The translations under genes were made by a program, and so were the position numbers. The notes under the pieces are model-generated. The model saw nothing but the letters and a program-made list of their open reading frames with translations. It did not search any database and was not told where the DNA came from. Positions 6,201 to 54,972 of a DNA stretch of 62,187 bases are shown in pieces. The stretch's first letter is position 1; every line of letters begins with the position of its first letter. The stretch is taken from positions 1-62,187 of the forward strand of contig DATACC010000271.1 in the NCBI GenBank assembly GCA_036259255.1, written 5' to 3'. This DNA comes from Thermoanaerobaculia bacterium. Lineage in GTDB: Bacteria; Acidobacteriota; Thermoanaerobaculia; Multivoradales; JBCCEF01.

Positions 6201-7981
6201 AGGTCGAGGTCGAGGTGCGGCGCCAGCAGCTCGGCGCAGCGGTCGACGTCGGCGCGGAACGACGGTTCGTCGCGGTAGAGCCCCAGCGCCATGCCGGGCC
6301 GCTGGCTCCCCTGCCCGGGGAACAGGAAGGCCAACGGGCGCTCGCCCCCGGCCCCGGCGACCCCGGTACGGATCGGCGCCGGGGCGGTGAGGTCGAAGGG
6401 GACCGGGGCGGCCACGGGCCCCGCCGCCTCTTGCGCGGCTGCTTTCTGCGGGGGTGCCAGGGCCCGGGCCGCCTCCTCGCCCCCGCGCACCACCAGGGCG
6501 CGGCGGTGCTCGAAGCCGCGGCGGCCGGTCTGCAGGGTGTAGGCGACGTCGGCCAGCGCCAGGTGGGGCCGGCGCCGCAGCGCCTCGCCCAGGGCACCGC
6601 CCGCAGCCGCCAGCGCCGCGGCCGAACGGGCCGAGAGCACCAGGAGCTGCCAGGGCCGCCCGGGCGCGGCGGGGGCGGTTTCCGGGGCCTCCTCGAGAAT
6701 GGCGTGGACGTTGGTGCCGCCAATGCCGAAGGAGCTCACGCCGGCGCGGCGCGGCGTGGGGCCGGCGGGCCAGTCGGCGAGACGCTCGGCCACCCGGAAG
6801 GGGCTCGCCGCGAAGTCGATCTCCGGGTTGGGGCGCTCGAAGTGGAGGCTGGGCGGGATCTGGCGATGCTGCAGCGCGAGGACCGCCTTGATCAGCCCCG
6901 CCACGCCGGCGGCGGCGTCGAGGTGCCCGAAGTTGGTCTTGATCGAGCCCAGGGCGCAGAAGCCACGCCGCTCGGTGGAGGCGCGGAAGGCGCGGGTGAG
7001 GGCCGCCACCTCGATCGGGTCGCCCAGCGGCGTGCCGGTGCCGTGGGCCTCGACGTAAGAGATCGAGTCGGCCTCGACGCCGGCCATCGCCAGGGCCTCG
7101 GAGATCACCCACGCCTGCCCGTCGACACTCGGTGCCGTGTAGCCGATCTTCGCCGCACCGTCGTTGTTCACGGCGGAGCCGAGGAGGACGGCGCGCACCG
7201 TGTCGCCGTCGGCCAGCGCGTCGTCCAGGCGCTTGAGCACCACCACGCCGACGCCGTCGCCGGCGATGGTGCCGCGGGCCTCTCCGTCGAAGGCGCGGGT
7301 ATGCCCGTCCGGGGACAGCACCGATCCCTCCTCGTACAGATAGCCCTGCTTCGACAGGATGTTGATCCGCACGCCGCCGGCCAGCGCCATGTCGGTTTCG
7401 CCGCTCAGCAGGCCCTGGCAGGCCAGGTGGACCGCCACCAGCGACGACGAGCAGCCGGTCTGCACGGTGAGGCTGGGCCCCCTCAGGTCGAGCTTGTAGG
7501 CGGTGCGGGTGGCCAGGTTGTCGAGCCGGTTGGCCACTCGCACGTAGGCCTCGCCGGCCGCCGCCAGGATCTCCGGGTTGCGCAGCAGGCGGGTCAGCAG
7601 GTAGTTGTTCATGCCGCAGGCGGCGTAGAGGCCGATCGCCCCGGTGTGGGCTCCGGGGTCGTAGCCGGCGTCCTCCAGGGCGTGCCAGGCGGACTCCAGG
7701 AACAGGCGCTGCTGCGGATCCATGATCTGCGCCTCGAGGGGGCTGAAGCCGAAGAATCCGGCGTCGATCTCCTCGATGCCGTCGAGGTAGCCGCGGGCGC
7801 CGACGTAGCCGGGCCGGCTCGCCAGGGCGGGATCGGCCCCCGCTTGGCGCAGCTCCTCGGCGCCGAAGAAGGACACCGACTCGACCCCGTCGCGCAGGTT
7901 GCGCCACAGCGCCTCGGCGCCGGCGGCACCGGGGAAACGCAGCGCCATGCCGACGATGGCGATGCGGTTGCCGCCGCTCAT
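3203..7981 (-). CDS. Type I PKS module KS-AT(malonyl-like)-KR(atypical)-ACP, 1592 aa
   Basis: KS TGCSSS/EAHGTGT/KTNFGH; AT GHSLG with RGFH; KR GGLGRIG and RPK, but catalytic YAAAN reads HAAAH; carrier FFELGGHSL; ATGA overlap with the upstream gene. Confidence 0.93.
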   Translation of the reverse strand: MSGGNRIAIVGMALRFPGAAGAEALWRNLRDGVESVSFFGAEELRQAGADPALASRPGYVGARGYLDGIEEIDAGFFGFSPLEAQIMDPQQRLFLESAWHALEDAGYDPGAHTGAIGLYAACGMNNYLLTRLLRNPEILAAAGEAYVRVANRLDNLATRTAYKLDLRGPSLTVQTGCSSSLVAVHLACQGLLSGETDMALAGGVRINILSKQGYLYEEGSVLSPDGHTRAFDGEARGTIAGDGVGVVVLKRLDDALADGDTVRAVLLGSAVNNDGAAKIGYTAPSVDGQAWVISEALAMAGVEADSISYVEAHGTGTPLGDPIEVAALTRAFRASTERRGFCALGSIKTNFGHLDAAAGVAGLIKAVLALQHRQIPPSLHFERPNPEIDFAASPFRVAERLADWPAGPTPRRAGVSSFGIGGTNVHAILEEAPETAPAAPGRPWQLLVLSARSAAALAAAGGALGEALRRRPHLALADVAYTLQTGRRGFEHRRALVVRGGEEAARALAPPQKAAAQEAAGPVAAPVPFDLTAPAPIRTGVAGAGGERPLAFLFPGQGSQRPGMALGLYRDEPSFRADVDRCAELLAPHLDLDLFAALAATPGDEEGGGPLAETRAAQPALFVLEYSLARLWMRWGVRPDAMAGHSLGEYVAACLAGVMELPDALALVAVRGRLMQETAPGAMLAVPLAPEALAPELAGVELAAVNGPELCVVSGPVPAVEALAEGLAAAGVDARRLRTTRGFHSALVEPMMPAFGELLAGIELAPPRIPFLSNLTGTWITAAQATDRGYWLEHLRRPVRFGDGLAELLRAPGRILLEVGPGRTLSTLARRHPELGDDHLVVPSLPGGEESAADLAQVLAGLGRLWCGGVTVDWPALHAGDARRRVPLPGYPFERQRYWVDPAPAAGREAAAGERRNDLGDWFHAPSWKRLPPLPAGTGGEGRRWLLLDAAGGPGGELARRLEAAGDEVVTALPGESLRRTGPRSWVMDAGDGEQVRALLAELDASGLAPDRVVHLASLAADGRDEAGVAGFERRQRLGFHSLIHLARALARVLTEHPGRACRLTAVGSGLDDVLGGEPMSPAAATLAGACRVVAQEHPELACRVVDVAPSAVAEGGAVPAEALARELAVGDLPDGERRLPGFVALRNGVRWGRGFEPVRLPGPAGPPLRLRREGVYLLFGGLGRIGLVLAEGWARELGARLVLAGRSVPGPEPLTPQEWGARLAAGDGDGGGGEEAAALVERLRGMERSGGRVLALQADVSDEAAVRRAVAATRERFGALHGVVHAAGRTRTLCTVGETTPETAELHFRPKAHGALALEAALTGERPDFVLLLSSLSAELGGLGYAAHAAAHRYLDAFALDRGRRGDFPWLSLGLDGWRFGEGRSGAGRASAGRARRVGTARAAVGMTPEEGVEAIRRFLDQAEATHLAVSTTDLEARAVASRVAPAPALAVPGQAVPDQAVPGEAVTGEAAAGVPEGGGPAPRPGRPALGTPFVAPASETEQIIAGLWETVLGVEGVGVVDDFFELGGHSLLGVQLVSRLRETFQVEITLRRVLEQTTVRGLAAVVEEALLAEIAELSDEEAERLLEGVP
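3566..3625. repeat. 15-bp imperfect tandem repeat x4 (linker AVPGQ/AVPDQ/AVPGE/AVTGE)
   Basis: cgcctcgcctgtcac / cgcctcgcccggcac / cgcctggtccggcac / cgcctgccccggcac. Confidence 0.85.

Positions 7982-54972: not shown

Follow-up and report, generated by a model that had tools for sequence, protein, structure and literature searches.

The stretch of DNA analysed here (the window) is one whole contig, C271, of 62,187 bp and 75% GC, from a metagenome-assembled genome (MAG) of an uncultivated, soil-type member of the Thermoanaerobaculia (Acidobacteriota); the MAG amounts to 4.07 Mb in 364 contigs and is approximately 80% complete, and its RpoB shares 87–88% identity with the RpoB of MAGs named Thermoanaerobaculia and 89–91% with further metagenome sequences. 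The window encodes a hybrid nonribosomal peptide synthetase (NRPS) and polyketide synthase (PKS) assembly line in which a catalytic condensation (C) domain at or near the end of one protein is followed, five times over, by a C-like domain without the catalytic histidines at the start of an NRPS protein downstream. These five domains are identified here by phylogeny as interface (I) domains, and the C/I junctions that they form, some with and some without a TauD-type hydroxylase, are the subject of this report. Gene models were drawn from a frame plot of third-position GC content (GC3) and a search for start codons, and domains were assigned with Pfam. There are twelve genes, all on the minus strand, and most of the joins between them are overlaps of 4–8 nt or very short gaps, the largest being 31 nt. 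With adenylation and carrier domains abbreviated as A and T, the genes are as follows.

47878-54972, minus strand: g1, KS-AT-DH-KR-ACP-C
40469-47881, minus strand: g2, I-A(Asp)-T-Cy-A(Cys; nitroreductase-type Ox)-T
33805-40476, minus strand: g3, KS-(probable AT stump)-KR-ACP-C-TauD
28047-33797, minus strand: g4, I-A(DARGVSQMTK)-T-C-TauD
26366-28015, minus strand: g5, B12 radical SAM protein (PhpK-family model TIGR04479, 640 bits), inside junction 3
23052-26351, minus strand: g6, I-A(Asp)-T
18280-23055, minus strand: g7, C-A(Gly)-T-C
17180-18283, minus strand: g8, free TauD
11526-17183, minus strand: g9, I-A(His)-FkbM methyltransferase-T-C
7978-11529, minus strand: g10, I-A(Asp)-T
3203-7981, minus strand: g11, KS-AT-KR-ACP
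2-3202, minus strand: g12, C-A..., cut by the contig end

All five I-bearing proteins open with GF(R/P)LSPQQ (window positions 47857, 33779, 26312, 17174 and 11478, minus strand), and the I domain begins 4–18 residues past the start codon; almost nothing precedes the C1-type motif in these proteins, whereas 25–45 residues stand there in g7 and g12. In place of HHxxxDG the I domains carry LPGLAGD (47431), WPALCAD (33365), LPPVCAD (25919), LPVLCGD (16784) and SPLHLD (11055). The protein before each of them ends in a C domain, a C domain fused to TauD, or a C domain followed by a free TauD (five of five), and the upstream C motifs are intact: HHIAVDG (49014), HHIVGDQ (35808), HHVVSDA (30068), HHVIGDR (19323) and HHIVSDA (12632). 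In order, the junctions contain nothing, a fused TauD, a fused TauD plus the radical SAM gene, a free TauD, and nothing. The third downstream protein, g6, is an I-A-T gene of its own (23052-26351) and lies outside the long open frame at 18280-26271. A relaxed form of the start motif has nine matches in the six frames of the 4.07 Mb genome, seven of which are I-type starts (five in the window, the others on contigs C47 and C60), so its recurrence in the window is not a matter of chance. The domains at the junctions are listed below; C domains were called by Pfam, fused TauDs by Pfam and the TauD tree, and I domains by Pfam, trees and the code of the partner A domain.

about 48037-49404, minus strand: terminal catalytic C of g1 (HHIAVDG; Pfam and motif), followed by a 52-aa tail
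46532-47881, minus strand: I1, start of g2 (LPGLAGD)
34876-36210, minus strand: catalytic C of g3 (HHIVGDQ)
33850-34716, minus strand: fused TauD of g3
32448-33797, minus strand: I2, start of g4 (WPALCAD)
29136-30479, minus strand: catalytic C of g4 (HHVVSDA)
28110-28985, minus strand: fused TauD of g4
25002-26351, minus strand: I3, start of g6 (LPPVCAD)
18382-19740, minus strand: second, terminal catalytic C of g7 (HHVIGDR)
15834-17183, minus strand: I4, start of g9 (LPVLCGD)
11733-13028, minus strand: terminal catalytic C of g9 (HHIVSDA)
10180-11529, minus strand: I5, start of g10 (SPLHLD)

The His-less domains are recognisable members of the condensation superfamily. The first 350–450 residues or so of g2, g6 and g10 match Pfam Condensation at 89–165 bits, and the top matches of I3 among PDB sequences are C domains (Txo2, 7e-24); HHxxxD is missing in five of five, with the structural Asp retained. 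I2 to I5 are 36–39% identical to I1 (mean column identity 51%), and the five have the motifs RHEILRT, LQYADxAEWQNxLLE, DGR and GPxARWLP in common. Among the best 120 proteins in a search with I3, more than 85 start with GF/YRLSPQQ and have (L/S)PxLCAD instead of HHxxxDG; those with names come mostly from uncultured Acidobacteriota, and also from Chloroflexi, Solirubrobacteraceae, Gemmatimonadota, a Sorangium and one cyanobacterium. In a search of annotated plasmids the best matches (E = 1e-40 to 1e-50) are N-terminal domains positioned right after a TauD, and ordinary C domains score 1e-11 to 1e-16. Gene contexts of I domains in named organisms are the following, with commas separating genes.

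Leptolyngbya boryana pLBX (L003): free TauD, I-A-T, C-A-T-C-TauD, I-A-T-TE; TonB receptor nearby
Gloeothece PCC 7424: C, TauD, methyltransferase, I
Nostoc NIES-3756: C-TauD, I
Trichormus variabilis plasmid C: C-TauD, methyltransferase, I
Methylocystis: C, TauD, I; a weak match (1e-11) of the annotated-plasmid search
Azospirillum: C-TauD, I; found with the Methylocystis I domain as query of a second search

Reference I domains for phylogeny were chosen by TauD neighbour or gene context from siderophore-type clusters of cyanobacteria (Leptolyngbya pLBX, Gloeothece, Nostoc) and alphaproteobacteria (Methylocystis and Azospirillum), and a genome scan contributed 79 further loci. In a FastTree of 326 C-type domains, 74 of the 75 I-labelled rows form one clade with support 100, and this clade holds no row labelled catalytic C, Cy or epimerase-like (10 FNYLG rows). 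In an IQ-TREE analysis (LG+C20) of 93 rows, the 45 I rows separate from the 48 C rows, a split that has 99% support in the Shimodaira–Hasegawa-like approximate likelihood ratio test (SH-aLRT). All five His-less domains of the window fall within the I clade, and on this placement we identify them as interface domains, a non-catalytic branch of the condensation superfamily. Epimerase-like and Cy identities are ruled out by the trees; for an X-type identity the trees held no reference. In the larger FastTree the closest relative of each of the four window I domains shown comes from another genome, which makes them old paralogues; that the five are recent duplicates is ruled out by their 36–39% identity to I1 and because they are not mutual nearest relatives.

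These results bear on an earlier, sequence-only reading of the same DNA, which had described an intact C domain followed by a His-less C-like domain at five junctions, had listed the contents of each, and had pointed to fused, free and empty states side by side in one line. All of the motifs that it quoted are found where it had placed them, and the Pfam gene models agree on both the contents and the coexistence of the three states. It had also asked whether the His-less domains form the I clade or instead group with ordinary C or epimerase domains; five of five lie in the I clade at 99–100% support, and the other grouping occurred in neither FastTree nor IQ-TREE.

Codes of the A domains were read at the GrsA-PheA positions, at which the reference fragment returns the known DAWTIAAICK code.

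I1 module (first A of g2): DLTKVGHVGK, Asp
Cy module of g2: DLWNMSLIWK, Cys
I2 module (g4): DARGVSQMTK, unassigned; neither Asp nor His, an unusual residue
I3 module (g6): DLTKVGHVGK, Asp
g7 module: DILALGVIWK, Gly
I4 module (g9): DSATVAEVWK, His
I5 module (g10): DLTKVGHVLK, Asp

The A domain that partners an I domain is therefore specific for Asp (three times) or His (once) in four of five cases, the partner of I2 being neither. A hydroxylase of the Fe(II)/2-oxoglutarate type adjoins three junctions (g3, g4 and g8) and none is present at g1/g2 or g9/g10; the HxE...H iron ligands are intact in all three TauDs. In a TauD tree, the g4 enzyme lies within a mostly fused, Asp-linked clade (98%), g8 groups with two His-linked free TauDs (90% SH-aLRT) inside a six-row clade at 98%, and the g3 enzyme is a lone branch in a mostly free clade, near TauDs paired with unusual codes. 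Taken together with the codes of the next modules, these three lineages indicate that each hydroxylase matches the residue of the module that follows it. The interchangeability of the junction contents that the sequence-only reading had supposed is not supported by this comparison for the TauDs; judged by lineage and code, the three are matched partners, not interchangeable parts.

A further TauD of NRPS type is present as an orphan on contig C192 (L093; 7153-8244). It has a leader-like N-terminus, is 48% identical to the g4 TauD, and has housekeeping genes (7TM-HD, YbeY, UvdE) as neighbours. No NRPS gene was recognised among these annotated neighbours; one weak match to an A-type hidden Markov model (HMM) approximately 2.4 kb downstream is unconfirmed.

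Every terminal C domain that faces an I domain is followed by a basic stretch, roughly L-(K/Q)-K-L-K-x-(V/A)-K-R-K-x-(V/I), which aligns over empty, free and fused states in Cyanobacteria, Acidobacteriota, Chloroflexota and Myxococcota. In fused proteins the C-TauD linker opens with this motif, and in free TauDs it is the N-terminal leader that precedes the Pfam TauD fold; all six of the free TauDs tested carry it. A motif HMM built free of window sequences gave seven matches in 18,300 window residues, and five of these are at predicted sites: the g1 tail, the g3 and g4 linkers, the g8 leader and the g9 tail. The occurrences in the window are given below with the means by which each was located.

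47959-48000, minus strand: basic tail motif of g1, RQRLRVSRRQGVRL, junction 1 (empty); motif HMM, and kept in orthologues L091 and L092
34792-34839, minus strand: linker motif of g3, SNLKKLKITRRRSVNL, between C and fused TauD; alignment and motif HMM
29055-29099, minus strand: C-TauD linker motif of g4; motif HMM
about 18295-18336, minus strand: tail of g7, ALLLRGLRQRVLAP; alignment only
18206-18247, minus strand: leader of the free TauD g8, KDFGALRRKTVSVS; motif HMM
11631-11669, minus strand: tail motif of g9, QNLAALKRAQRQG, junction 5 (empty); alignment and motif HMM

The core of the g1 tail reads RL(K/R)VSRR(R/Q)xVxL in three orthologues including the window (RLRVSRRQGVRL, RLKVSRRRAVPL and RLRVSRRRGVQL). 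A motif check of the radical SAM, methyltransferase, GNAT and flavin monooxygenase (FMO) proteins of I junctions found the motif missing, and among the junction enzymes compared the basic leader is seen in TauDs only. At one locus in a Pyrinomonadaceae MAG (L079, 8525-11347) the terminal C domain, the basic tail and the next I domain are contained in a single open frame with no stop, a natural C-tail-I fusion.

To place the five junctions in a wider setting, domain order was called in every locus with small HMMs for TauD, catalytic C, I, A and T, and 49 I domains from public genomes with at least 2.6 kb of readable upstream DNA formed the survey set. A terminal catalytic C precedes 46 of the 49, either followed by TauD (31), directly (14, with a gap of 300 nt or less) or together with another gene (1); the remaining three come after a radical SAM gene (L022), after a TauD with no C seen, and after a T domain (L013), and the I-labelled match of L013 may be the lone I-labelled row outside the clade. 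The I domain thus marks a module split between C and A. Approximately 30% of the surveyed junctions are empty. Lines with multiple I domains are frequent among these loci, with filled and empty junctions mixed in L039, L044 and L067, three consecutive empty junctions in L042 (a TauD lies 3.7 kb further on), and six I domains in G044; the sequence-only reading had known of no characterised cluster like this one, and these lines do not support uniqueness. Within the class, sampling of 150 species genomes yielded only three others with I-type domains at threshold (one, two and six per genome, which are lower bounds, with 11 candidates scored in each genome). The MAG itself has two more I junctions, one on C47 (C, free TauD, I) and one on C60 (C, then I-A(Gln-like)-FkbM-T-C); at 39% identity, C60 is ruled out as a strain variant of g9.

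Two of the surveyed loci have peculiarities of their own. At L027 (approximately 7940-9960) tandem TauDs, one fused and one free, stand before one I domain, and the A domain paired with it has the code DS-DLGVVDK. In L013, from a MAG with the label Actinomycetota, both the I domain and the TauD are nearly identical to their counterparts in Microcoleus sp. C2D2 (L015), with branch lengths of 0.14–0.17, which suggests either a cyanobacterial contig in the wrong MAG bin or a very recent transfer.

Clusters syntenic with that of the window are present on three metagenome contigs, GCA_030390125.1 (114 kb), ENA ERZ25039549 (72 kb) and ENA ERZ1760229 (245 kb), and these orthologues retain the A-domain codes of the window. 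GCA_030390125.1 and ERZ25039549 have an identical order of states from g3/g4 onward, and the empty g1/g2 junction is seen in GCA_030390125.1 and ERZ1760229; by locus, g1/g2 is empty in L091 and L092, and g9/g10 in L089 and L090. Both empty junctions head Asp modules, and in the syntenic clusters they are still empty and still Asp at approximately 50% identity. The only change of junction content among the clusters is at junction 4 of ERZ25039549, where an extra FMO gene (Pyr_redox_3/FMO-like; L002 19095-20702, the same as L090 8348-9955) lies between the free TauD and the His I-module. Identities to orthologues are 46–55% for I domains, 58–72% for A, 61–69% for catalytic C, 63–80% for T, 69–84% for TauD and 78–79% for the radical SAM protein. 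The empty I5 is 46–49% identical to its orthologues, compared with 51–55% for the filled I domains, and its ratio of I to A identity is the same as theirs; the empty state therefore appears to be stable and under constraint rather than a fresh deletion.

The radical SAM gene g5 and the I-A(Asp)-T gene that follows it recur as a pair in the window and in three relatives. In a Pyrinomonadaceae MAG (L022, 8308-13222) the pair comes after a MacB-type transporter, and neither a C domain nor a TauD was seen upstream of it. The g5 protein is among the most conserved of the cluster (78–79% to orthologues; TauD g8 is at 76–84%). It probably methylates the Asp of g6, and looks like a gene product that accompanies the junction rather than one docked to it. 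Further genes found at I junctions are B12 radical SAM (the window, L001, L002 and L022), class I methyltransferase (L005, L007), GNAT (L016), FMO (L002), a methyltransferase-like open reading frame (ORF; L017) and a second TauD (two at L027). The L017 ORF (8904-9872, 323 aa) is situated between a terminal C domain and an I-A(Asp) module and contains a class I methyltransferase-like glycine motif, LEIGVGGYDD; it has no Pfam match, and there is no TauD at that junction. Non-TauD enzymes at I junctions nearly always adjoin a TauD, the exceptions being L017 and L022. Lacking the leader motif, they look like neighbours that act on the same residue, not plug-in parts of a common socket.

The interpretation that we favour, with a probability of about 0.6, is that the I domain serves as the docking partner where a module is divided between C and A, with the hydroxylase carried on that junction. 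Each I domain heads a module whose C domain sits at the end of the previous protein; the I domain would substitute on the A domain for the absent C, and would dock the upstream terminal C by way of its short basic tail. The TauD would be held at the same junction, because the same motif constitutes its linker or leader, and would act on the carrier-bound residue either ahead of condensation or while it takes place. At both Asp junctions without a TauD, the two proteins would still be docked by the I domain, and the Asp would either stay unmodified or be hydroxylated in trans by the TauD of g4 or of C192. We infer the tail-to-I contact from the placement of the motif. In characterised systems the I domain is essential for the free His hydroxylase GlmF (glidomide) and dispensable for the fused Glu hydroxylase MxgA (PMC13638107), so recruitment fits better than catalysis as its role.

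Several observations weigh against docking. The I domain of myxoglucamide is unnecessary for condensation or hydroxylation in vitro (PMC13638107), which is a poor fit with an essential docking role. Scores of the motif HMM are low, since the motif is short (0.9–7.9 bits for four of the five on-target matches, and -0.9 for the g9 tail), and the g7 tail gave no match; the tail could be a mere remnant of a TauD linker that stayed behind after a fission or deletion of the gene. Context served to define the reference I domains, which are not the original Reitz set. Hydroxylation at any position is predicted rather than observed.

A different view of the variety of genes at these junctions is that the C/I junction is a general plug-and-play socket for exchangeable tailoring enzymes in fused, free or empty form, as the sequence-only reading had proposed. 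The assortment of extra genes (radical SAM, class I methyltransferase, GNAT, FMO, the methyltransferase-like ORF and paired TauDs) is in keeping with this, and the recruitment of other enzymes by I domains is raised as a speculation in PMC13638107. We nevertheless consider it quite unlikely, given that most of the non-TauD enzymes adjoin a TauD (apart from L017 and L022) and do not have the shared leader, that TauD lineages follow the substrate of the next module, and that the order of states is fixed over orthologous clusters at approximately 50% identity, with one added FMO gene as the sole change. The platform idea is partly supported for TauDs, which have the leader in common; its extension to a general socket is not supported, since the radical SAM, methyltransferase, GNAT and FMO proteins are without the motif. 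It is less improbable, if still doubtful, that the Asp of the empty junctions is beta-hydroxylated in trans by the g4 or C192 TauD, recruited via the I domain. Both empty modules load Asp, the usual substrate, in the window and its orthologues; empty junctions elsewhere are mostly Asp modules too, a TauD is usually present somewhere in clusters that have them, and their I domains are constrained like filled ones. The C192 enzyme, with its NRPS-type sequence, leader-like N-terminus and 48% identity to the g4 TauD, would be a candidate, but it has no shown link to this cluster. Where fused and free TauDs co-occur, moreover, each directly precedes its own I module, and we know of no characterised system in which a single TauD serves more than one I module.

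The empty junctions could also be leftovers from which the TauD was deleted, with the I domain and tail persisting without function. Some empty tails (L014, L029 and L041) do resemble fused-type linkers cut right after the motif, filled and empty I domains are intermixed in the FastTree, so that gains or losses must be frequent, and I is the least conserved domain type of the line. We regard this as very unlikely, however: for each empty junction, two syntenic clusters at approximately 46–55% I identity preserve the absence of a TauD, the Asp code and the tail motif alike, I5 shows no faster evolution than filled I domains when each is measured against its A domain, and no I domain in the window is truncated or frameshifted. 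An extension of the docking interpretation, which we put forward as speculative and rather improbable, is that the basic peptide, roughly L-K-K-L-K-x-V-K-R-K-x-V, is a shared docking code, placed at the end of all terminal C domains opposite an I domain and at the start of all I-associated TauDs, and the I domain a receptor for both upstream synthetase and hydroxylase, in cis or in trans, with the empty Asp junctions served by the g4 or C192 TauD. If this is true, the hydroxylation pattern of such lines would depend on the set of leader-bearing TauDs that the cell produces rather than on which genes are adjacent.

Other features of the contig and genome are as follows. The AT domain of the g3 PKS module (window 36600-40476) is probably a stump because only positions 1–114 of the 319-position Pfam profile are matched; the KS and ACP domains of g3 are apparently complete. 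The flank at 55–62 kb encodes an M12-like peptidase, MeaB and an acyl-CoA dehydrogenase. In ENA ERZ1760229 an AMP-binding (FAAL-like) gene, an acyl-CoA dehydrogenase and a free ACP are located immediately before the g1 homologue (L092, 1-3056), an arrangement that suggests a fatty-acyl starter for that cluster; the window has an acyl-CoA dehydrogenase at 59800-61302, but no FAAL-like/ACP cassette adjoins g1. Candidate chelating residues (of the beta-OH-Asp, beta-OH-His and thiazoline or thiazole kinds) are predicted from the TauDs beside Asp and His modules and from the Cy-A(Cys)-Ox module. No siderophore transport genes (TonB-dependent receptor or ABC importer) are in view within the window, and the cluster continues past the other contig end. 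On contig C333, RpoB has a zinc ribbon-like N-terminal insert with four CxxC pairs (CKCG, CTNCG, CGTCG and CDTCG); its best relatives are of similar length (1415–1440 aa), and the insert may be common to them.

Published results on the role of I domains are divided, and the presence of fused, free and hydroxylase-less junctions in one operon, with orthologues, makes that role easier to test: one construct could distinguish docking, hydroxylase recruitment, or both. For genome mining, the I domain can be taken to mark a module split between C and A, usually specific for Asp or His; beta-hydroxylation, in turn, is not predictable from the I domain alone, given that approximately 30% of I junctions have no adjacent hydroxylase gene. 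The tail/leader motif is a candidate handle for the engineering of split NRPS modules.

The layout of C-TauD followed by I-A-T is that of interface-associated beta-hydroxylases (Reitz 2019, as cited in PMC12230676 and PMC13638107), as the sequence-only reading had correctly stated. The siderophore IbetaH_Asp and IbetaH_His cassettes, which antiSMASH 8 detects, resemble the window in the terminal C domain, the fused or free TauD, and the His-less C-like domain before an Asp or His A domain, and fall in the same tree clade as the window I domains, as judged by context-defined references. The cassettes have one or two junctions, whereas the window has five and the genome at least seven; two of those in the window are without a hydroxylase, at one a B12 radical SAM gene is added, and one pairs with a residue other than Asp or His. 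The host also differs, being a member of the Thermoanaerobaculia, and the line is a PKS hybrid with no siderophore transport genes in view. The best-scoring named relatives of the window I domains are those of the siderophore-type NRPS cluster on Leptolyngbya boryana plasmid pLBX (E = 1e-49, 32% identity), which have the GFRLSPQQ start and the tail/leader motif in common with them; the gene layout of pLBX, and we make the comparison by layout only, resembles described cyanochelin clusters (ccs; bioRxiv 10.64898/2026.07.24.740629). Unlike the window, pLBX has just two junctions, each I domain has its own TauD, and a TonB receptor and an acylase adjoin.

I domains are known outside siderophores from myxoglucamide, the product of a hybrid NRPS/PKS (PMC13638107). 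Its MxgA/MxgB pair is similar to the window in that a non-siderophore line has a C-Ox (TauD type) end on one protein and an I-A-T start on the next, but there is a single junction and the substrate is Glu; there, the I domain is dispensable in vitro and hydroxylation and condensation are interdependent, whereas the window is known from sequence alone. Glidomide GlmF and its I domain (Chen et al. 2022, in the account given by PMC13638107) correspond to the layout of g8 and g9, a free hydroxylase acting on carrier-bound His; the glidomide I domain is indispensable according to that account, and the His module of the window additionally embeds an FkbM methyltransferase. Already known, then, are the I domain and the TauDs that partner it, as well as its occurrence in hybrid lines outside the siderophores, and lines with multiple I domains occur in other genomes. 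Three elements of the present system look new: the conserved TauD-less junction on Asp modules, the tail/leader motif common to terminal C domains and TauDs, and the repeated occurrence of a gene for a PhpK-family B12 radical SAM protein next to one for I-A(Asp)-T.

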